Below, one piece after another: positions 4,943-32,000 of a DNA stretch of 32,000 bases. Within the stretch, counting starts at the first letter, position 1, and the number at the start of each line of letters is the position of its first letter. The notes beneath the pieces were generated by a model. That model was not told where the DNA came from, searched no databases, and saw only the letters and a list, made by a program, of their open reading frames with translations. The translations under genes and the position numbers were made by a program. The stretch comes from Dickeya dadantii NCPPB 898 (lineage in GTDB: Bacteria; Pseudomonadota; Gammaproteobacteria; Enterobacterales; Enterobacteriaceae), in assembly GCF_000406145.1 (NCBI RefSeq), contig NZ_CM001976.1, forward strand, positions 4,703,677 to 4,735,676, written 5' to 3'.

Positions 4943-4984
4943 TAACCGGGGAGACGGTTAGCACGACGCTGACGATCCAGCGTC
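4943..4984. terminator. two hairpins between convergent yiaC and the HNH gene
   Basis: The first is taaccg (4943-4948) / cggtta (4955-4960). The second is gacgctg (4965-4971) / cagcgtc (4978-4984). Neither has a clear U-tract. They sit exactly at the GC-rich to AT-rich transition. Confidence 0.4.
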
Positions 4985-4987
4985 ACC

Positions 4988-5635
4988 TTAATATTGCTCG
5001 TTATAACTCCAGGCATGGGTGAGAGCAGTACTGAACTCAAGAGCATATACCCTTGACAATGTCTCCTGTAAAAGCTCATCCAACTCTTCTTCTGTTAGTT
5101 CATTTTCCAGACTGTAAAACTCTTCAATTTCTTTAAGTTCCGCGTTAATAGCTTGTTTCCTGCTATTAAACAAAACAGTGTCATCATTTAAATTAAAAAC
5201 ACGAATAGTTTCCGAAGCCCTTACATGCTCAGCATCGGTAAGACCAGTACGGGGGCGAACCTTCCCAGTCGTCAAAAAATGAAGAAAGAATGACGGATTT
5301 TCCTCATCCGGTTTAATCAAATTCTCAGGTCTATATCCACCAGCGCCGTTATCTTTATAAATCCCACAACGCAACCATCCACCCTTCTGCGAAGTATCAC
5401 CGCAAGAGCCGAACAGATTTGCCCAGTCAAAAATTAAATCAGCATGCTCTTCACGCGTTCTGAAATGCTCAATGTGTTTACGATTTAAACGGCATTCACA
5501 ATAGGCACAAAAACCATGTTGCATAGCATCCAAGGCAGTCCAGATTTCATCCTTATTCGCAGCGCCCCAATGATCATGACCAGCGATTAGTTGATTTAAG
5601 CATTCTGGAGCTTCAGACCTATCTAATTTTTTCAT
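4988..5635 (-). CDS. HNH endonuclease, retron/Septu PtuB-like effector subunit
   Basis: The 215-aa ORF carries a CxxC...HxEH HNH core ([21 protein letters not shown]). Its ATG at 5635 overlaps the stop of the upstream ATPase gene (ATGA). It is the last gene of the RT-ATPase-HNH operon. Confidence 0.85.
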
Positions 5636-7287
5636 CCTTGCCGACCCTTATCCTGCTTCCTTGCTAGTGCCCTCAGCTTCATTGACTTGATTCGAATTAG
5701 GCTATCGCATCTCTTCAGTTCGAAACTATCCGGCCCGAAGTGTTCGCTTATTTTTTTATATAACTCTTTAGCTTCGAGGTTATTTTCGTAATCGCCTTGC
5801 TCCAATATAACCTCAAAATCCCCAACCCAATGAGACTCTGCAACACGAGGCGGTAATGCAAACACGTTCATAACCTGTTCAAGAATGTCAGAGTTAATTA
5901 CACCTTTAGTTTGAAACTTTGGCGAATCAAGTACTACTTCAGTCTCATCTCCATCGTCTCTGAATTGTCGTATGCATCTTTTGTCAACAGTTGAAAGTAC
6001 TATAGGGCTGTGTGTAGTTATGATTTGTTGGACATTGGGAAAGACTTTTCTCAGATTTTCAATTACATCTTGCTGCCACTTGGGATGAAGATGAAGCTCA
6101 ATCTCATCAATCAATATAATGCCTCTTCCTTCGAACGGGTTTTTCATTAGCGGATTTAGCATAATCATCCGTCGGGCAAGATCGGCGACTAAACTAAGGA
6201 AAACACGTTGTCCGTCAGAAAGTTGCTCAACTATTACCTGTTTACCGTCATTGATAACCTTAACCACATCGACACCGGAAGACGTTTCAACCCAAATATC
6301 ACTGATACTTGGCACTACAGTGCTAATAGCATAAACAATTAATTTTTTCTGTAAAGATTCTGGCAGATTATTGTTTTTTCGTTCTTTTGATATTAATTCA
6401 TTAAGCTTCATCTTAGTCTGCTCAAGTAAAGGTTTTACCGATAACAGACCATTATCAATCGATACTTGTAACTCGCTGACTTGCTGACGCAATATGTCAA
6501 CTGAAACAGACACATCATCGGCGGTTCGTTTATGCAGTGCGATAAACCATTCTATAAAATGATCGAAACGCCCAGCCCCAGCTAAGGCATTGGTATATGC
6601 ATCAAAGCGTTCTTCCCTCAGTCTCAGTTCCCCAGCGTCTTTTGTTAATTTATTGAATGGATGAGAACGTTCGACAGAATAAAATGCAAATATTGGAAGA
6701 TTCACAGTTTCATGCGCATTTACTATCCGCCATATATCTGATACTTCTTTGACCGATTTGACGATCCCATCCCGTCGCGTAGACGTTCCCGGTGCAGATC
6801 TCGAAAGTCGAACTTGTATATTTTTTAGCCCCTTACCAAAATAGAAATTACTATTTATATCAGCATATTTTTTTTCAGAACCATTTCTGATATCCGTTAT
6901 TTCGTTCAAACGCTGACCAATGCCGTCTTCTTTTAGAATATTTGCGCTAAACCAGCTTAGTGTTTTGGCAATTGCAGTAAGAATACTGGTTTTTCCTTCA
7001 CCATTGTTACCGATAATCACGGTGAGATCGTCTTCGAAATTCATGTCCAAAAACGCAAAACGACGAAAGTCAGTCAATGATAAAGAACGTAGATAGAAAT
7101 CATTTTCGGGACGAAATATGTTTAATTCGTTTACCTCACCAACCTGCAAGTAGCGCCAGCAGCGATCAAACCACTCCCTGGCTTTTTCTTTGCTATCGGG
7201 AGTGTCGCTTTTGGAAAAATGCTGATAAAGCTCAAATGCAGAAAGCAAATTCCCTCCCTTAGCTCTTCTTTCAAGTTGTTTAGTCAT
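5632..7287 (-). CDS. ABC/SMC-like (AAA_15/21-type) ATPase, retron/Septu PtuA-like effector subunit
   Basis: The 551-aa ORF has Walker [10 protein letters not shown], an ABC-signature-like LSDGQR, Walker [14 protein letters not shown] and an H-loop ITTHSP. Its ATG at 7287 overlaps the RT stop (ATGA). Confidence 0.85.
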
Positions 7288-8222
7288 TGATTGCTCCTGT
7301 GGATACTGCTGATTAAAGAAACAGTATACTTTTCATTCATTTTTATAATGAACTCGGGTTCGATATGATTAACAAAAGCCAGAAGGCCACACAGATATCC
7401 TATATCAGCTTCATCCAGTAAGCCGTATTTGTACTGATTGATTAGATGCTTTATAAAGCGCTTCCGTTCACGGCCCAAAGATAACTGTCCTTCATTATTA
7501 AGCGTGATACCGGTGACGTGACGGTTGTATGCCTTTGATGAGAATACCGTTTTGCCATGATTCAACCGCAAAGCATTTTTATATAGTTTCGTTAGCAATA
7601 CCTGAATAAAAGAGGGTAATAACCTCAACAGGTTTGGTGTGTTAGTGGAAAACGTTAGGTCATCAGCATATCTTGTATAAACAATATCCAATCTCAGGCA
7701 TTCGTCACTCAACAACCGATCAAACTCATAGAGGCAGAAATTTGAGACAGTTGGAGATGAAGGAGCCCCCACGCTCAGCATCAACGTATGTTTGCTGCGT
7801 TTTACTGGTTGCCAAAATAAGATTTTCTCCACGTAATTTTTGTCTTGCGTAGAAAATTGTGGGGTATCTACAGAACACTGCTCGAAGCAGTGCCAAAAAA
7901 CTGTAGGAGTGATTGAATTAAAAAAATCCTCCAGATCTGTTTTCAAAAGGTACCGGTTGTTGGCATGAGCGATCGCATTATCTCGGATACTTTTACCCTT
8001 CCGATATGCCATAGCAACATCATGAACAGGAAATGAGTAAAGCTGTATCAACGCTCGCTGATACTCTTTAAGAGCTTTAGCTGGCTGAGCGATGATCCTG
8101 AATCCATTCGTTCGTTTGGGGATTCGATAGACCTTGTACTTGAGAGGGGCGTTTTGCAGATAGAGTCTTACATCCGACTCACTTTGCCGTAAGATCGCAG
8201 CTAACGCTTTGATAATCTGCAT
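7284..8222 (-). CDS. retron-type reverse transcriptase
   Basis: The 312-aa ORF has the RT motifs [49 protein letters not shown] (YxDD) and LNHGKT. It also has the retron-associated NAxxH (NAIAH) and VTG (RHVTGITL) signatures. Its small size and the adjacent structured ncRNA fit a retron. Confidence 0.92.
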
Positions 8223-8231
8223 GACTTTACC

Positions 8232-8266
8232 TATAAAAAGCCCGGTAGCAAAGGTGCTTCCGGGCT
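8232..8266 (-). terminator. intrinsic-terminator-like hairpin plus U-tract between msd and the RT start codon
   Basis: On the minus strand the sequence reads agcccgg-a-agca-ccuu-ugcu-a-ccgggcu followed by uuuuaua. That is 7+4 bp with one A.A mismatch and a tetraloop. It ends 9 nt before the RT ATG at 8222. Confidence 0.45.
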
Positions 8267-8269
8267 CGA

Positions 8270-8412
8270 CTCTTTACTAGAGGAAGCGAAAGTGTCGCAA
8301 CCTGAAGGAGGAACGAATTCAGGTTGCGACACTTTCGCAACCCTAAATACGTTCAATAAATTAGTGTCTGGCTAATCACCCGACAAGACGTAATACGTCC
8401 AACACTAAAGAG
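8270..8412 (-). ncRNA. candidate retron msr-msd non-coding RNA (core between a1 and a2)
   Basis: It lies immediately upstream of the RT on the same strand. Candidate a1 is cucuuua (8412-8406) and a2 is uaaagag (8276-8270), giving 7 bp, with an unpaired G at 8405 directly 3' of a1 as the candidate branching G. The msr part has small hairpins (gacgu-auu-acguc; auuag-ccagaca-cuaau). The msd part carries the 21-bp perfect hairpin at 8286-8338. The exact transcript ends are unknown. Confidence 0.6.
8286..8338. repeat. perfect 21-bp inverted repeat (predicted msd stem-loop)
   Basis: gcgaaagtgtcgcaacctgaa (8286-8306) is the exact reverse complement of ttcaggttgcgacactttcgc (8318-8338). The loop is 11 nt. 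Confidence 0.9.
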
Positions 8413-8437
8413 CTTCGTAAGCTTAACTCACTATCCC

Positions 8438-8466
8438 ACTATAAACAACTCCGTTTTTCTTGTTTA
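8438..8466 (-). promoter_or_regulatory. possible sigma70 promoter for msr-msd/RT operon
   Basis: On the minus strand, taaaca (8466-8461) is followed by a 17-nt spacer and then tatagt (8443-8438). This would start transcription about 20 nt upstream of a1. It is a weak motif-only call. Confidence 0.3.
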
Positions 8467-8976
8467 ATTTCATATAATTACTTGAAATGTAATCTATAAT
8501 GCATGATAAAATATGCAAGTCGTGAACGATGATTTGGGAGGATAAGATTTGGGCCTGATTGGTACCTACAGTCAAACTGGGCATCACTCTTTCAGGTTGT
8601 CAGGTGCCACAGTATCGCGCTGAAAAACTTCATAAAACTTCCCTTCATCTGGAGGGTTATCTTTACCATTTATGATGTTACTTAACGCTTGATAACGGTT
8701 GCGTTTCATCAGGCCGGTTGTTGTACTACAAGCTGGGCAGCCCCTGTGCGGGAGAGCTATATCACCTCACAACTCGACACGTTAAGAGATAAAAAATAAT
8801 AATATCTGATTGTTTATCATGATATTTTATTGAATCCTCCAATCGTTTTTGGGCGATGGCACGGCAAAGACCGGGCATCAATATGCGAAGCTAGTAGAGC
8901 ACCCTTTTTTAAAAGACCGCTTTTAAATACAAGCGTCGTTTTAATCAGACAATCGCCTATCAGCCGGAGTGAACTG

Positions 8977-11642: not shown

Positions 11643-12899
11643 ATGAACTTTTCCCGTTTCGGCAACAAATTTACCCGCCATGCCGGCATTACCCAACTGA
11701 TGGACGACCTGAACGACGGGCTGCGTACCCCCGGCGCCATCATGCTGGGCGGCGGCAATCCGGCCCATATCCCGGCCATGGACGATTACTTTCAGCAGCT
11801 GTGTCGCGACCTGCTGGATCAAGGAAAACTGACGGATGCGCTGTGCAACTACGACGGCCCGCAAGGCAAAGATGAGCTGCTGCATTCGCTCTCCGGCCTG
11901 CTGCGCGAACAACTGGGCTGGGAGATTGGACCACAGAATATTGCACTGACCAACGGCAGCCAGAGCGCGTTTTTCTACCTGTTCAACCTGTTTGCCGGCC
12001 GCACCGACGACGGCCAGCGCCGCCGGGTGCTGTTCCCGCTGGCGCCGGAATACATCGGTTACGCCGATTCCGGGCTGGATGAGGACATGTTCGTCTCCGT
12101 TCGCCCGCAGATTGAGCTATTGCCCGAAGGGCAATTCAAATACCACGTCGACTTCGAGCAACTGCGCATCACCGACGACATCGGCATGATTTGCGTCTCG
12201 CGGCCCACCAACCCCACCGGCAACGTGCTGACCGACGAAGAGTTACAGCATCTGGATGCGCTGGCCCGCGAACATCAGATCCCGCTGGTGATCGACAACG
12301 CCTACGGCGTGCCGTTCCCCGGCATTATTTTCAGCGACGCCACGCCGCTGTGGAACCCGAACACCATCCTGTGCATGAGCCTGTCGAAACTCGGCCTGCC
12401 CGGTTCGCGCTGCGGCATCGTGATCGGTTCGGAGCAGCTAATCGAAGCGCTGGGCAACATGAACGGCATCGTCAGCCTGGCGCCCGGCTCCATCGGCCCG
12501 GCGCTGGCGCACGAGATGATCCAGCGCGGCGACCTGCTGCGGCTGTCCAACGATGTGGTGCGGCCGTTTTACCGTCAGCGGGTGGAACAGACCATCGCCA
12601 TCATCCGTCGCTATCTGTCGCCGGAAATCTGCCTGATCCACAAACCGGAAGGGGCGATTTTCCTGTGGCTGTGGTTCAAAGACCTGCCGATCACCACCGA
12701 CGTGCTGTACCAGCGGCTGAAACAGCGCGGCGTGCTGATGGTGCCGGGCCATTACTTCTTCCCCGGTCTGGAACAGGAATGGCCGCACGCTCACCAGTGC
12801 CTGCGCATGAACTATGTGCCGGAACCGGAAAAAATCGAGCAGGGCGTCGCCATTCTGGCCGAAGAAGTAGAGCGGGCGCGGAAAGAAGGCGGCATCTGA
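11643..12899 (+). CDS. avtA: valine--pyruvate aminotransferase
   Basis: The 418-aa ORF MNFSRFGNKFTRHAGITQLMDDLNDGLRTPGAIMLGGGNPA...CMSLSKLGLPGSRCG...HQCLRMNYVPEPEKIE is colinear with E. coli AvtA, including the PLP-lysine SLSK motif. Confidence 0.95.
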   Translation: MNFSRFGNKFTRHAGITQLMDDLNDGLRTPGAIMLGGGNPAHIPAMDDYFQQLCRDLLDQGKLTDALCNYDGPQGKDELLHSLSGLLREQLGWEIGPQNIALTNGSQSAFFYLFNLFAGRTDDGQRRRVLFPLAPEYIGYADSGLDEDMFVSVRPQIELLPEGQFKYHVDFEQLRITDDIGMICVSRPTNPTGNVLTDEELQHLDALAREHQIPLVIDNAYGVPFPGIIFSDATPLWNPNTILCMSLSKLGLPGSRCGIVIGSEQLIEALGNMNGIVSLAPGSIGPALAHEMIQRGDLLRLSNDVVRPFYRQRVEQTIAIIRRYLSPEICLIHKPEGAIFLWLWFKDLPITTDVLYQRLKQRGVLMVPGHYFFPGLEQEWPHAHQCLRMNYVPEPEKIEQGVAILAEEVERARKEGGI

Positions 12900-12923: not shown

Positions 12924-12946
12924 AAGCCGCCCGAAGGCGGCCTCAG
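12924..12946. terminator. GC hairpin, copy 1 of a duplicated 23-nt unit; oriented as a rho-independent terminator for minus-strand transcription
   Basis: The unit is aagccgcccgaaggcggcctcag, with stem gccgcc/ggcggc and a 4-nt loop. The A6 run at 12920-12925 overlaps its first two bases and becomes a U-tract on the minus strand. Confidence 0.6.
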
Positions 12947-13368
12947 ATTGCCGACAAAGTCCTTAAGTACAGGATGAAGCATTTTTCCGGCGTCAAAAAC
13001 TGTGCTGAGGTGGGCGACTTCGCCGGGTGAGCGACAGGACGTCGCGAAAGCCCGTGCCGCGTCTGACAAAAACGTTGGGAACGTTTTTGAACAGCGTTTA
13101 CGCTGGCCCGCAGGGCGAGCCCCAGGGATGGGGCGAGTAACCGCGTCACGGGCGGCCCGAACAGCGAAGGCGAATGCCGAAGGTAGCGCACAGCGCCGCA
13201 GTTTAGCCTCCAGCCAGTGGTCAAGGAGAGGTGGCGTTTGAACCTCTCCTTGTCGTGCGTGCGATGAAACAGCAAAGAAATTACACCGCTTATACCGCAC
13301 GAAACTATTCACTGACCGGACAAACTTCACCATTCACAAGACAACATAGCTGTTTGCCAACAGCCTCA
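12946..13368 (+). repeat. copy A of a ~420-bp non-coding, hairpin-rich repeat element (unknown family)
   Basis: It aligns along its length with 19157-19574. The core (~12989-13268 vs ~19200-19478) has about 30 mismatches by hand count. Conserved hairpins are at 13031-13045, 13067-13089, 13119-13134, 13186-13196 and 13222-13252. It is bounded by CCTCA at 12941-12945 and 13364-13368. The strand assignment is tentative. Confidence 0.85.
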
Positions 13369-13390
13369 AGCCGCCCGAAGGCGGCCTGAG
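13368..13390. terminator. GC hairpin, copy 2 of the duplicated 23-nt unit, downstream of the DUF1471 gene
   Basis: aagccgcccgaaggcggcctgag matches 12924-12946 at 22 of 23 positions. It lies 19 nt past the stop of the minus-strand gene at 13409. Confidence 0.55.
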
Positions 13391-13408: not shown

Positions 13409-13660
13409 TCAGTTGTAGATTTCTGCGACACCGCGCAGTTGGTTGTCGTTACCGGTCGCGGAGATGATGCGGAATGATTTAGCGCCGGCTGCGTTGGCTT
13501 TTTCAGACAGGCTGGCTTGCAGACCGTCCAGCGTACCGGCGGTGGCGCTCACGGTGCCGACGGACTGGCTGGCGCTGTGCTGTACTTCTGTCGCAGCAAA
13601 GGTGCCGAAAGAAACGGTAGCCAGGGCGATAACTGCAACAATATTTTTGATAGCTTTCAT
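13409..13660 (-). CDS. YdgH/BhsA/McbA-family (DUF1471) small secreted stress protein
   Basis: The product MKAIKNIVAVIALATVSFGTFAATEV...GTVSATAGTLDGLQASLSEKANAAGAKSFRIISATGNDNQLRGVAEIYN parallels E. coli BhsA, with a signal peptide and the C-terminal GAxxFRIxS...G.A.IY pattern. The ATG at 13660 has AAGGA 8 nt upstream. The ORF-track start at 13666 is a TTG. Confidence 0.85.
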   Translation of the reverse strand: MKAIKNIVAVIALATVSFGTFAATEVQHSASQSVGTVSATAGTLDGLQASLSEKANAAGAKSFRIISATGNDNQLRGVAEIYN

Positions 13661-13990
13661 GGTCAATATCCTTCACATTGAATTCGGTTAGTGTTCTTAA
13701 CTGGAGGCGTTATCGCCTTCGATGAAAGTGATAATAGACCTGTTGCCGGCGCGTTAAAAACGGGTTTATTTGTAGATATCATTCAAATTTTATGAAATAA
13801 AAAAACCCGCGATTTCGACGATTTTCTCCCCACCTCCACTTACCCCAAAACCAGATATTTATTACCGGTATTGTACTTTGTGGTTTCCGCATGCCTGTGG
13901 AAGTATCCCTTTCGTATGACAGCCTTTTCCCAGCCCTGACATCACCTGCACAGCGGCTGATAGCACTCTGATAACTAAAAGGAAAAAACC

Positions 13991-17467: not shown

Positions 17468-19128
17468 GCCTGCCGCTAAGCTTGCAAAGCAGCACGACAA
17501 CACCGGTGCTGGAACTGGAAGACGTCGCCATCGCCTACCGCGACGACGACGGCGAACGCACGGTGGTGGAAGGCGTGTCCTTCGCCATCCAACCCGGCGA
17601 AGTGGTGGCGCTGGTGGGCGAATCCGGTTCCGGCAAAACCACTACCGCACAGGCGGTGATCGGCCTGCTGGCGGACAACGGCCGCCTGACGCGCGGGGCG
17701 ATCCGCCTTAACGGTGCCGATATCAGCCGCTGGTCGCAACCGCGGCTGGATAGTATTCGCGGTCGCGTGGTGAGCCTGGTGCCGCAGGATCCCGGCAGTT
17801 CGCTCAACCCGGTGAAAACCATCGGCGAGCAGGTGGATGAAATTCTGCGGCTGCACCAGAAAAGCGACCGCCACAGCCTGCGCCGGCAAACGCTGGCGCT
17901 GCTGACGCGCGTCGGGCTGACCGAGCCGGAGCTGCGCGCCGGCCAGTACCCGCACGAGCTCTCCGGCGGCATGAAACAGCGGGTGTTGATCGCCATCGCC
18001 ATCGCACTGAAACCGGCGCTGATCATCGCCGATGAACCGACCAGCGCGCTGGACGTCACGGTGCAAAAACGCATTCTCGACCTGCTGGACGAACTGCGCC
18101 GGGAAAACGGCACCGCCATTCTGTTCGTCACCCACGATCTGGCGGTCGCCGCCGAGCGCGCCGACCGCCTGCTGGTATTCCAGAAAGGCTATATTCAGAA
18201 GCAGGGGCCGACCCAACAGGTGCTGAGCGCGCCGCAAAGCCAGTACGCCCGCACCCTGCTGGCGAACATCCCGTCGCTGGCCCCGGCCCGCCGTCCGTCA
18301 CGCGCCGCCGCTCAACCTGCCGCGTCCGGTCAACCCATTCCCTGTGAACTAATTGTGCAGGTGGAACAGCTGGTGCAGGAATTCCCGCCGGCGGGCAACC
18401 GCAAACAGCCGTTCCGGGCGGTGGATGCGGTGTCGTTCAGCGTGGCGCCCGGCACCACCCACGCCATTGTCGGCGAGTCCGGTTCCGGCAAGACCACCAC
18501 CGCGCGCATGATTCTTGGTTTCCAGCGCCCGACCGCCGGCCGCATCCTGATCGACGGCACCGACATTACCCGGCTGCGCGGCGAAGCGCTGCGCCAGTTC
18601 CGCCAGACCATCCAGCTGGTTTATCAAAATCCGTTCAGCTCGCTCGACCCGTCGCAGCGGTTGTTCGACATCGTGGAAGAGCCGCTGCGCAATTTTAACC
18701 GCTACGCCCGGGCAGAGCGGGCCAACCGGGTACACGAGATATTCGAGCGGGTGGCGCTGCCCGCGTCGCTGCTGCAACGCCGACCGGCGGAACTGTCCGG
18801 CGGCCAACGCCAGCGGGTTGCCATCGCCCGCGCGCTGGTGCTGGCGCCGAAAGTGCTGGTGCTGGACGAAGCCGTCTCGGCGCTGGATGTCACGGTACAA
18901 GCCCAGATCCTGCGTTTGCTGGAGGAACTGCAAGCGTCGCTGGGGCTGACCTATCTGTTTATTTCCCACGATCTCGCCGTGGTGCGGCAGATAGCCGATA
19001 CCGTTTCCGTGCTGTATCACGGCAAACAGGTGGAATCCGGGCCGGTCGAGCAAATTTTCGCCCAGCCGGCCGAGCGCTATACCCGGGAACTGATCGACGC
19101 GATTCCCGGCCAGCGCCACGTCTCTTAA
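17464..19128 (+). CDS. ABC transporter ATP-binding protein with duplicated ATPase domains (DppD/DppF fusion type)
   Basis: It has two Walker A motifs (GESGSGKTT twice), two signature motifs (LSGGMKQR and LSGGQRQR) and two Walker B motifs (LIIADEPTSALD and VLVLDEAVSALD). The ATG at 17464 overlaps the permease stop (ATGA). The ORF-track start at 17200 is an in-frame read-through of the permease gene. Confidence 0.9.
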   Translation: MSLPLSLQSSTTTPVLELEDVAIAYRDDDGERTVVEGVSFAIQPGEVVALVGESGSGKTTTAQAVIGLLADNGRLTRGAIRLNGADISRWSQPRLDSIRGRVVSLVPQDPGSSLNPVKTIGEQVDEILRLHQKSDRHSLRRQTLALLTRVGLTEPELRAGQYPHELSGGMKQRVLIAIAIALKPALIIADEPTSALDVTVQKRILDLLDELRRENGTAILFVTHDLAVAAERADRLLVFQKGYIQKQGPTQQVLSAPQSQYARTLLANIPSLAPARRPSRAAAQPAASGQPIPCELIVQVEQLVQEFPPAGNRKQPFRAVDAVSFSVAPGTTHAIVGESGSGKTTTARMILGFQRPTAGRILIDGTDITRLRGEALRQFRQTIQLVYQNPFSSLDPSQRLFDIVEEPLRNFNRYARAERANRVHEIFERVALPASLLQRRPAELSGGQRQRVAIARALVLAPKVLVLDEAVSALDVTVQAQILRLLEELQASLGLTYLFISHDLAVVRQIADTVSVLYHGKQVESGPVEQIFAQPAERYTRELIDAIPGQRHVS

Positions 19129-19156
19129 GAGACACAGCCTAACCAGCGCGTCTTCA

Positions 19157-19574
19157 AGCTGGCGACAAATCTAAATAAGTGCGGGTTGGTGTGTTTTCTG
19201 GCGTCAAAAACTGCGCTGAGGTAGGCGACACCGCCGGGTGAGCCGCAGGACGCGGCGAAAGCCCATGCCGCGTCGGACAAAAACGTCGGGAACGTTTTTG
19301 AACAGCGTTTACGCTGGCCCGAAGGGCGAGCCCCAGGAATGGGGCGAGTAACCGCGTCATAGGCGGCCCGAACAGCGGTGACGAATACCGAAGGCACCGC
19401 GTAGCGGCGCAGTTTAGCCACCAGCCCGAGGTCAAGGAGAGGTGGCGCTTGAACCTCTCCTTGTCGTGCGTGCGATGACGTGACAGAGAAGGTGAGGCGG
19501 TTTATCCAGCACGAAACCACTCTCTGTTCTGACATGGCTCGCTAAAACAACGCGGTTTTTTGCCAACATCCTCA
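19157..19574 (+). repeat. copy B of the ~420-bp non-coding, hairpin-rich repeat element
   Basis: It is homologous to 12946-13368 and in the same orientation. Equivalent hairpins are at 19242-19256, 19330-19345, 19397-19407 and 19433-19463. It is bounded by CTTCA (19152-19156) and CCTCA (19570-19574). It fills most of the 476-bp gap between the ABC ATPase gene and the LLM gene. Confidence 0.85.
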
Positions 19575-19604
19575 AAGGACAACGCCTAAACCAAGGATTT
19601 AATC

Positions 19605-29501: not shown

Positions 29502-30779
29502 ATGAATAACAACAACGATCTGCCTTTGGCTGGCGTCAGAATCATCGACTTCACACACGTGCAGGCCGGCCCTGCATGTACACAAATGCTGGCGTGGTTC
29601 GGTGCCGATGTCATCAAAATCGAACGTCCCGGCTCGGGGGACATCACCCGTAACCAGTTGCGCGACATTCCAGATGCGGACGCCCTGTACTTCACCATGC
29701 TCAACAGCAACAAACGTTCGCTCACCCTGGATACCAAAAAGCCTGAAGGCAAGGAAGTTCTGACCCGCCTTATCAAAGAGTGTGACGTGATGGTGGAAAA
29801 CTTCGGCCCCGGCGCGCTGGATCGCATGGGTTTTACCTGGGAGCACATTCAGGAACTGAACCCTCGCATGATTCTTGCCTCGGTTAAAGGCTTCAGCGAA
29901 GGCCACCACTACGAACACCTGCGAGCTTATGAAAATGTCGCCCAATGTGCGGGGGGTGCGGCCTCAACCACCGGCTGGTGGAAGGGTGAGAACGCCGGGC
30001 CGACCATTTCGGCTGCCGCGTTAGGCGACAGCAACACCGGTATGCATTTGGCTATCGGCATCCTGACCGCGTACATCGGCCGTCAGAAGACCGGCAAAGG
30101 GCAGAAAGTCGCCTGCGCCATGCAGGATGCGGTGCTTAACCTCTGCCGCGTCAAAATGCGCGATCAGCTGCGTCTGGACAAAGTCGGCTATCTGGAAGAG
30201 TACCCGCAGTATCCGCATGAAGCGTTCACCGACGTGGTGCCGCGCGGCGGTAATGCCGGCGGCGGCGGCCAGCCAGGTTGGATCCTCAAGTGCAAAGGCT
30301 GGGAGACCGACCCCAATGCTTACATCTACTTCACAGTACAGGACCTGGTCTGGACGCCGATTTGCGACGCGATAGAACGCCCGGAATGGCGAGACGATCC
30401 CGCCTATACCACCCCGAAGGCGCGTCAACCGCACATCATGGATATTTTCGGCGCCATTGAGAGTTTCATTTTGAGGGCCGGTAAAAGCAAGTTCGACGCG
30501 GTGGAGTACTTCGGGAAGTTCGGCATCCCCTGTGCGCCAGTGATGTCGATGAAGGAACTGCTGCACGACGAATCGCTGCGTAAGAGCGGCTCCATCGTCG
30601 AAGTGCCGCACAAAGTGCGCGGCAGTTACTGGACCGTCGGCTGCCCGATCAAGTTCTCGGCTCTCAAACCTGAGATCACCGCCTCGCCGCTGCTCGGTGA
30701 GCACACCGACGACGTGCTGGCGGAACTGGGCTACTCGAAAGAGCAGATTGCGCTCATTCACACAGCCAAAGCGGTGTAA
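29502..30779 (+). CDS. frc: formyl-CoA:oxalate CoA-transferase
   Basis: From the ATG at 29502 (GGAGA RBS) the product ...[34 protein letters not shown]...[16 protein letters not shown]...[31 protein letters not shown] is colinear with E. coli YfdW/Frc and Oxalobacter Frc. Confidence 0.93.
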
Positions 30780-31317: not shown

Positions 31318-32000
31318 ATGAGCAAGGCATTAGACGGGATCAGAATTATTGATTTTACCCATGTACAGTCTGGCCCGAGCTGTACCCAGTTGCTCGCCTG
31401 GATGGGCGCAGACGTGATCAAGATCGAACGCGTCGGCGAGGGTGACGCGACACGCAAGCAACTACGCGACATTCCCGGCGTGGACAGTCTGTATTTTACC
31501 ATGCTGAACCACAACAAACGCGCCGTCACACTCAACACCAAGACACCCGAAGGCCTACAGGTGCTGGATAGCCTGATCAAGCGCTGCGACGTGCTGGTGG
31601 AGAACTTTGCTCCCGGCGCGCTCGACCGCATGGGGCTGACCTGGGAGCACATCCACGCCGTCAATCCGCGGATGATCCTCGCGTCGGTCAAAGGCTTTGG
31701 TCCCGGTCGTTACGAAGACTGCAAATCCTACGAAAACGTGGCGCAATGCGCCGGCGGCGCCGCATCGACCACCGGCTTCAACGATGGCCCGCCGATTGTC
31801 ACCGGCGCCCAGATCGGCGATTCAGGTTCGGGTTTGCACCTCGCGCTGGGTATTGTCTCCGCGCTTTTCCAGCGTCACACCTCCGGACGCGGACAAAAGG
31901 TCTCGGTATCAATGCAAGACGCCGTGCTCAATCTATGCCGGGTAAAACTGCGTGACCAGCAACGGCTGGAACGTACCGGCGTATTGGAAGAGTATCCACA
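31318..32000 (+). CDS. second formyl-CoA transferase paralog (family III CoA-transferase), 3'-truncated by the window edge
   Basis: From the ATG at 31318 (GAGGAG RBS) the frame is open to the window end. The product [40 protein letters not shown]...[17 protein letters not shown]...[23 protein letters not shown] is Frc-like, roughly two-thirds identical to the first copy by eye. It is missing from the ORF track because it has no in-window stop. Confidence 0.9.

Follow-up and report, generated by a model that had tools for sequence, protein, structure and literature searches.

Two copies of a probable YPAL/RU-2-type repeat carrying a four-hairpin module in Dickeya dadantii NCPPB 898

The Two Copies and Their Genomic Setting

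A 32,000-nucleotide (nt) stretch of Dickeya dadantii NCPPB 898 (contig NZ_CM001976.1), here called the window, contains two copies of a structured repeat of about 425 bp. Copy A lies between avtA (11643-12899, + strand) and a bhsA-like DUF1471 gene (13409-13666, - strand), and copy B lies within an operon, between the gene of an ABC-transporter ATPase (stop codon 19126-19128) and that of a luciferase-like monooxygenase (start 19605). Both copies are probably insertions of a non-autonomous, non-coding mobile repeat of the YPAL/RU-2 type, in a long variant found in the genus Dickeya. Their coordinates and those of their parts are given in Table 1.

A repeat search of the window returned a single family with a core of 285 nt (12983-13267 and 19194-19478, 90% identity), beyond which MAFFT alignment followed a weaker similarity to about 12942-13368 and 19153-19574; a third copy was not detected in the window by low-stringency blastn. 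The ends of copy A were set from the flanking duplication and the YPAL termini described below. An earlier reading of the same DNA, made from the letters alone (the original prediction), had reported two copies of about 420 bp with about 30 core mismatches by hand count; the copies are real, the refined ends fall within four bases of those it gave, and the mismatches number 29. Its view of the repeat as non-coding also stands, since 1-nt insertions or deletions disrupt all reading frames in most copies.

Table 1. Coordinates of the repeat copies, their flanking duplications and their structural parts (positions in the window)
Feature	Position	Strand	Remarks
Copy A	12942..13368	+	427 bp, 56% G+C; begins CTCAGATTGCCGACAAAG, finishes GTTTGCCAACAGCCTCA; alignments
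Copy B	19153..19574	+	422 bp, 58% G+C; alignments
Left target duplication of A	12925..12941	.	AGCCGCCCGAAGGCGGC; identical to 13369-13385; terminator-type hairpin, T run after it on - strand (terminator scan)
Right target duplication of A	13369..13385	.	perfect 17-bp match to the left one
Left target duplication of B, diverged	19127..19145	.	AAGAGACACAGCCTAACCA; judged against the empty site TTAAGGGACACAGCCTCAACCAAGG
Right target duplication of B, diverged	19575..19593	.	AAGGACAACGCCTAAACCA; judged against the empty site
Domain I	12997..13204	+	nested imperfect palindrome; alifold, both strands
Long-range helices of Domain I	12997-13004/13197-13204, 13009-13023/13164-13178, 13024-13027/13156-13159, 13050-13061/13142-13153	+	alifold
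Module, copy A	13062..13141	+	about 80 nt at the apex; covariance model R1 match 13061-13145, 95.3 bits
Module hairpins, copy A	1: 13067-13089; 2: 13092-13105; 3: 13106-13116; 4: 13119-13134		loops TGGGA (1) and GGGA (4); tail GAGTAAC
Module, copy B	19273..19352	+	model R1 match 19272-19356, 95.0 bits
Domain II	13217..13312	+	11-bp hairpin 13222-13252; stem 13253-13259/13296-13302 round a variable stretch of about 36 nt; helices 12-14
Right subterminal hairpin	13348..13365	+	AGCTGTT-tgcc-AACAGCC; helix 15; terminator-like on - strand

Four further copies were found when reference genomes were scanned with a 23-mer from the element, two in D. oryzae and two in D. undicola, and seven additional ones occur in metagenome contigs, five of them on different contigs of one assembly; the flanks of all these copies are unrelated to those in the window. 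The copy number seen is low, at two per genome, or five on the contigs of that one metagenome assembly. A literature search for such repeats in Dickeya was negative. Two metagenome sequences, L131:111-422 and L114:2130-2426, are distinct copies of the element (95% and 86% identity to copy A, with different left flanks) that both break off at one position of the 11-bp hairpin loop, beyond which the same unrelated DNA follows (TAACCGTGTTGCCAGTCAAG...); in L114 this DNA adjoins a yajD-like HNH gene. L131 also has a 17-nt tandem duplication within the element, CTTCGCCGGGTGrGCGA (about 300-340, - strand).

Insertion Sites and Target Duplications

The corresponding loci of relatives were located through homologues of the substrate-binding protein encoded in the window. 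The nearest genome, CP076386.1, is 96-97% identical in DNA over the shared region, and its substrate-binding protein, named Dickeya dadantii, is 99% identical; D. chrysanthemi and D. zeae are about 90% and about 87% identical to the window DNA, respectively (blastn). Site B is empty in D. zeae and D. chrysanthemi, where the ATPase-monooxygenase junction measures 28-30 nt (TTAAGGGACACAGCCTCAACCAAGGATTTAATCATG) as against about 476 nt in the window. Site A is without the element in D. zeae, and in D. chrysanthemi it has neither the element nor bhsA.

Copy A is bordered by a perfect direct duplication, which blastn picked up as part of a 23-nt flanking repeat, and about 19 nt of the empty-site junction are present at both sides of copy B. 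Among other copies, L049 has a duplication of about 13 bp and L036 possibly one of 5 bp, and a terminator hairpin ends 3 nt before the left end of L007. A gene stop is found 1-52 nt from every one of the 12 assessable copies. In nine the stop codon belongs to an upstream gene of the same orientation and precedes the left end of the element by 7-52 nt; the remaining three have a gene stop 3-16 nt from their right end. The bias in orientation falls short of significance (9/12, one-sided p about 0.07). The element would insert within a few nucleotides of gene 3' ends, where terminator-like dyad symmetries are present or adjacent, and insertion would duplicate a variable and unusually long piece of the target (17 bp in the case of A, about 19 bp in that of B).

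Relation to YPAL/RU-2

YPAL, the Yersinia palindromic sequence, also designated RU-2 and known from Yersinia and Pectobacterium, was reportedly treated by De Gregorio et al. in 2006 and by Delihas in 2007. The ends of the Dickeya element are close to those of this family: at its left end the D. oryzae copy L006 is identical to the RU-2 start (19/19), the right end of L007 agrees with the RU-2 end at 15 of 16 positions, and the consensus termini of 14 copies, TTCAGATTGCnGACAAACC ... TTTGTCAACAGCCTCA, match RU-2 at 17/19 positions on the left and 14/16 on the right. The RU-2 sequence of Y. pestis starts with TTCAGACTGCTGACAAACC, ends with TTTGTCAATAACCTCA and has AAGGA in its central hairpin loop (PMC2759123). 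YPAL is about 168 bp long, contains internal inverted repeats, has ends other than TA and is not A+T-rich; its target duplications range from 3 to 26 bp, its targets span or adjoin dyad symmetries, and it occurs in Yersinia and in Erwinia carotovora, another species of the Pectobacteriaceae (PMC2229807).

The Dickeya element shares with YPAL the terminal sequences TTCAGACTGCTGACAAACC ... TTTGTCAAYAACCTCA, the lack of TA ends, a base composition that is not A+T-rich, the placement of inverted repeats inside the element and not at its ends, a fold into hairpins that is strongly predicted, and an apical loop with GGA. It also shares long target duplications of variable length, within the range known for YPAL, and targets at or beside dyad symmetries just past genes; the duplicated target of copy A is itself a terminator hairpin. 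The two differ in length (422-427 bp as against 168 bp) and in their interiors, which are unrelated, the Dickeya element having an extra four-hairpin module and a second structured domain (13217-13312). They differ as well in abundance, about 100 copies of YPAL being reported in Y. pestis. The original prediction found the repeat impossible to place in any family. This was too pessimistic, as the ends, the long duplications of variable length and the terminator-proximal targets are those of YPAL/RU-2, and the central module is that of the ERIC insertion discussed below.

Several observations weigh against the assignment to the YPAL type. The termini of A and B are diverged, with 3-5 mismatches in 17-19 nt, and blastn aligns with YPAL only the termini of about 19 nt and about 16 nt, leaving unaligned the interior of an element 2.5 times longer; neither the YPAL length of 167-168 bp nor homology over the whole element was found. 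Seven extra nucleotides, GCGCGTC (19146-19152), which have no counterpart in the empty site and are also found in CP076386.1, separate the left duplication from copy B. Clear target duplications were seen at A, B and L049 only, and L007 and L053 have no recognisable one. A transposase or other recurrent gene was not found near 122 module-bearing loci when all open reading frames (ORFs) were clustered; those that did recur were spurious repeat-derived ORFs and members of common families (ABC ATPase, LysR). Finally, the properties of YPAL used for the comparison were taken from reviews and not from the primary description. Because only the termini align, the element is classed as a long variant that shares the ends and the insertion behaviour of YPAL, not as a plain member of that family.

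Fold and Compensatory Changes

The shared helices were defined as those common to the alifold consensus of both strands, and comprise 95 base pairs in 15 helices. The helices of Domain I enclose the hairpin 13031-13045, the central module and the hairpin 13186-13196. The individual hairpins of the original prediction are all present: GCGAC/GTCGC in copy A as against GCCGC/GCGGC in copy B at 13031-13045, GCGC/GCGC as against CCGC/GCGG at 13186-13196, GCCCCA-GGGA-TGGGGC at 13119-13134, where copy B keeps the stem and has GGAA as its loop, and the stems at 13067-13089 (9-10 bp) and 13222-13252 (11 bp). Likewise, the right subterminal hairpin has the compensatory variants GGCGGTT/AACCGCC and GGTTGTT/AACAACC in other copies.

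Of the core differences between A and B, 16 are in paired columns. Six pairs with both partners in the core are changed on both sides, and so is 13218/13311, the 3' partner of which lies beyond the core. These pairs include long-range ones that the original prediction had not listed, namely 13019/13168, 13020/13167 and 13054/13149. In an alignment of six copies 97.9% of the cells in the shared helices are paired and 19 pairs are changed on both sides, as against 7.1±1.9 in shuffles, none of which reached this number in 500, and 0-3 in slid controls. With 14 copies the figures are 97.7% and 21 pairs, as against 9.1±1.8 in shuffles (0/500) and 2-3 in slid controls, and 15 of the pairs changed on both sides belong to helices 2-6 of Domain I. 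The nested hairpins, long-range helices included, are thereby confirmed to be kept by changes on both sides of pairs, and the claim of the original prediction that structure is conserved by compensatory change holds at short and at long range.

Both strands are more stable than shuffled sequences (z -3.1 for the + strand, -4.8 for the - strand). In the shared helices 548 of 565 cells are Watson-Crick pairs, and G·U pairs number 5 on the + strand and 6 on the - strand. Six copies show 17 pairs with changes on both sides, five of them of transversion type (GC to CG, TA to AT, GC to TA), for which no route leads through a wobble intermediate. Such symmetric, wobble-poor stems are not the usual signature of an RNA made from one strand; the pattern fits selection on DNA hairpins, selection for perfect stems, or template switching that copies one arm into the other. 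The original prediction had argued for selection on the secondary structure of an RNA or a single-stranded DNA. The structural constraint is borne out, and the choice between the two molecules is left undecided by the counts of G·U (5 vs 6 here, 18 vs 17 in the module) and the lack of a predicted promoter. It had also named, as an outcome that would count against it, a match to the end of a known insertion sequence or miniature inverted-repeat transposable element free of structural constraint; ends of such a miniature-type repeat do match, and the structural constraint is present with them.

The Central Four-Hairpin Module

At the apex of Domain I lies a module of four hairpins, the region of the element with the least variation; it is 2.3 times less variable than its surroundings (pi 0.062 as against 0.14-0.15 in the flanking core). 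The module is separable and is gained or lost independently of its host element: the orthologous copy B of CP076386.1 (L008) has GAG (3 nt) in place of 19277-19352 and no module, according to the blastn break points, and the D. undicola copy L005 has a second, diverged module at another position.

A covariance model, R1, built from 14 diverse instances of the module, gave 113 matches, 84 of them distinct; by a scan for the hairpin 4 motif the module is present in at least 120 metagenome contigs, and one carrier is an Acidiferrobacterales-like gammaproteobacterium. Hairpins 1 and 2 covary heavily: 294 of their cells are changed on both sides, as against 69 in shuffles, and the covariation score of these two hairpins is 0.40 as against 0.11. 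The stems turn over while the linkers GAAC, GCGAG and GAGTAA and the loop sequences stay fixed. Watson-Crick pairs fill 1864 of 1928 stem cells, and G·U (18) is as frequent as A·C (17), i.e., wobble is equal between the strands. GGA is present in the hairpin 1 loop, which lay outside the search pattern, in 76 of the 84 modules, and TCC in none. In ten metagenome or viral sequences (L013, L014, L025, L040, L043, L048, L061, L088, L102 and L104) a second, more diverged module lies 60-150 nt from the first, so that modules in such contigs are often tandem or nested pairs. A tRNA-like T-arm suspected around environmental modules, GGTTCGA...ATCC, turned out to be just the closing stem.

When plasmids were searched with the element only its central 80-100 nt matched, at three places: within the ERIC repeat that lies between ybtP and ybtA on a Salmonella plasmid, on a Klebsiella plasmid and on a Pantoea megaplasmid. 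Among 5,426 E. coli genomes the element had a single match, to the module only. Uninterrupted and interrupted ERIC copies of E. coli (one and two, respectively) differ exactly by the apical module. The central module is the insertion of about 70 bp known within some ERIC repeats. ERIC, also called IRU or RU-1, resembles the Dickeya element in having a module of 74-80 nt at its apex, as seen in Salmonella and E. coli DNA, and in the coexistence of forms with and without it; the arms are unrelated, and the Dickeya element lacks the ERIC core (CCCCAGGAGCTTACATAAGTAAGTGACTGGGGTGAGCG) of the 127-bp imperfect palindrome and hence is not an ERIC. In the Pantoea YPAL homologue the module sits in the loop of the central hairpin, and the element of the megaplasmid aligns with the YPAL interior at both flanks of the module, which means that a YPAL relative bearing the module exists.

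The search of Rfam suggested in the original prediction gave no match at the gathering threshold and, under permissive settings, only a weak one to RF02902 (AaHKsRNA22, Aggregatibacter sRNA 22). This family aligns with the module over its full length at 21.6 bits for the window and 29.7 bits for the ERIC insertion, both under its gathering threshold of 39.8 bits, so neither can be counted as a member. RF02902 has the same order of four hairpins and the linkers GAAC, GCGAG and GAGU; it differs in having no GGA in the loop of hairpin 4. The source paper of the family gives nothing specific on sRNA 22.

Taken together as one proposal, which we regard as rather improbable, the module would be an ancient unit spread across Gammaproteobacteria, in Enterobacterales, probably Pasteurellales and an Acidiferrobacterales-like organism; it would enter and leave the apical loops of unrelated palindromic repeats (ERIC, YPAL-type and others), and its two invariant GGA loops, displayed on one strand, would bind a conserved factor, either CsrA/RsmA on RNA or an undiscovered enzyme that acts on single-stranded DNA and moves the repeats.

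Origin of the Paired Changes

The paired changes could also have been produced by mutation, through template switching at quasi-palindromes during replication or arm-to-arm conversion, and not by selection on a folded molecule. The nearly pure Watson-Crick composition of the stems of both element and module, the absence of a strand bias in G·U and the transversion-type pairs, which allow no wobble intermediate, are all expected of such a process, and small internal events at hairpins are on record: the 17-nt duplication of L131, a 13-nt deletion in L004 and the deletion of the module in L008. Mutation leaves unexplained, however, why loops and linkers stay fixed, on one strand only, amid the turnover of stems, why the module is the less variable part, and why Enterobacterales and an Acidiferrobacterales-like organism have the four-hairpin architecture in common. 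As a replacement for selection this explanation is doubtful, if the most credible of the alternatives; template switching is compatible with the interpretation of the copies as insertions of a YPAL-type repeat, to which it may be a contributing process rather than an alternative.

Possible Readers of the One-Strand Loops

The remark of the original prediction that three hairpins show GGA in their loops on the + strand is correct and gains weight from the 84 modules. The loops in copy A are AGGAC (13036-13040), TGGGA (13076-13080) and GGGA (13125-13128), spaced by 40 and 49 nt. CsrA and RsmE bind the consensus CANGGANG displayed in a loop, which the sequence of hairpin 4, CCCAGGGAUGGG, resembles. 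The element or its module might therefore be a functional RNA that binds RsmA/CsrA, either as a decoy or to place neighbouring genes under Rsm control. The retention of GGA, never TCC, in the hairpin 1 loop over freely covarying stems, the AAGGA loop of YPAL, and the coincidence of the GGA strand with the sense of the upstream gene in nine of 12 copies would agree with this, as would the subthreshold match of the full module to RF02902, an sRNA found by RNA-seq. CsrB, RsmB and RsmZ RNAs similarly carry GGA in short hairpin loops at a spacing that a CsrA dimer can bridge. They differ from the element, which has only three such loops, is mobile and is missing from close relatives; it matches no CsrB/RsmB-type Rfam family at E up to 10, and the scans predicted neither a sigma-70 promoter for it nor a + strand terminator within it. 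G·U is as rare as A·C on either strand of the module, three copies are antisense to both neighbours, and the orientation bias is not significant. The low copy number together with the absence from close relatives argues against a core regulatory role. What speaks for CsrA/RsmA binding is resemblance of motif, and we consider it unlikely.

A second candidate reader, to which we give an equally small chance, is an HUH/Y1 enzyme that would move the element as single-stranded DNA, in the way of REPINs or palindrome-associated derivatives of IS200/IS605, with the hairpins and one-strand loops as recognition sites. Stems restricted to Watson-Crick pairs combined with conserved strand-specific loops, the subterminal position of hairpins, a YTCAR motif common to the left flank and the right end, and the intergenic location near terminators would suit such an enzyme. 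REPINs, BIMEs and the palindromes of IS200/IS605 are likewise intergenic hairpins kept by compensatory change, and are thought to act as single-stranded DNA. IS200/IS605 elements and REPINs are not known to duplicate their target, whereas clear duplications of 17 and about 19 bp are present here; those elements are tied to a RAYT or TnpA gene, and neither a Y1 transposase nor a RAYT gene was recurrent near the 122 module loci. Rfam families linked to IS605 or HEARO are unmatched, and the element does not qualify as a REPIN or as an IS200/IS605 derivative. Group II intron fragments, IscB/TnpB guide RNAs and retron RNAs were considered as identities of the element and dropped, having no support in Rfam.

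The position of copy B immediately upstream of the monooxygenase gene and the long - strand ORFs overlapping both copies could suggest a riboswitch or other cis-regulatory leader for the monooxygenase operon, or else a decayed protein gene. These readings are refuted by the empty junction of 28-30 nt in the same operon of D. zeae and D. chrysanthemi and by the 1-nt indels that break every frame; the location of copy A between convergent genes and of other copies beside unrelated ones also argues against them.

Likely Effect on Neighbouring Genes

Read as the insertion of a YPAL-type repeat, copy B has enlarged the operon junction, which now measures about 476 nt instead of about 30, and the ribosome-binding region of the downstream gene was left intact by the duplicated target. 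An element inside a transcription unit, as copy B is, would give a transcript that carries an RNA structure with a predicted energy of about -158 kcal/mol. YPAL and ERIC in Yersinia are reported to affect the stability or processing of mRNA (PMC2229807). By analogy with them, copy B would probably alter how stable the mRNA is or how it is processed, and also how the genes on its two sides are coupled.

Other Features of the Window

The region 4953-8806 of the window is a strain-specific retron island, absent from CP076386.1 (97% identical), D. chrysanthemi and D. zeae. It comprises, all on the - strand, an msr RNA (8348-8413; Rfam RF00170, 77 bits), a reverse transcriptase of the type I-A/St85 family (7284-8222), a PtuA-like ATPase (5632-7287) and a PtuB-like HNH nuclease (4988-5635), and represents an anti-phage system of a known kind. 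A second direct repeat of the window, 29536-29835 and 31340-31639 (300 nt, 70% identity, 1.8 kb apart), may reflect paralogous genes, given the long ORFs there. In the Klebsiella plasmid record, L001:4140-4333 matches Yersinia sRNA 251 (RF02855, 166 bits) antisense within phoH; this match is unrelated to the element.

Significance

For the annotation of D. dadantii, the two intergenic blocks could be entered as insertions of the YPAL type, with copy B marked as having recently disrupted an operon junction. In the typing of Dickeya strains the presence or absence of the element could serve as a polymorphic marker, and that of the module as a second one. The copies also form a data set that combines heavy covariation of stems, fixed loops and no strand bias in G·U, a pattern that bears on an old question about the palindromic repeats of enterobacteria, namely whether selection acts on them as RNA or as DNA, and what moves them. 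A single four-hairpin module links three families described separately: YPAL, ERIC with its insertion, and the Aggregatibacter 'sRNA'. Were the proposal of an ancient unit true with CsrA/RsmA as its factor, these repeats would be portable switches of the Rsm regulon. The most interesting point is the module itself, with its wide distribution, its fixed loops on one strand and the factor that may read them.

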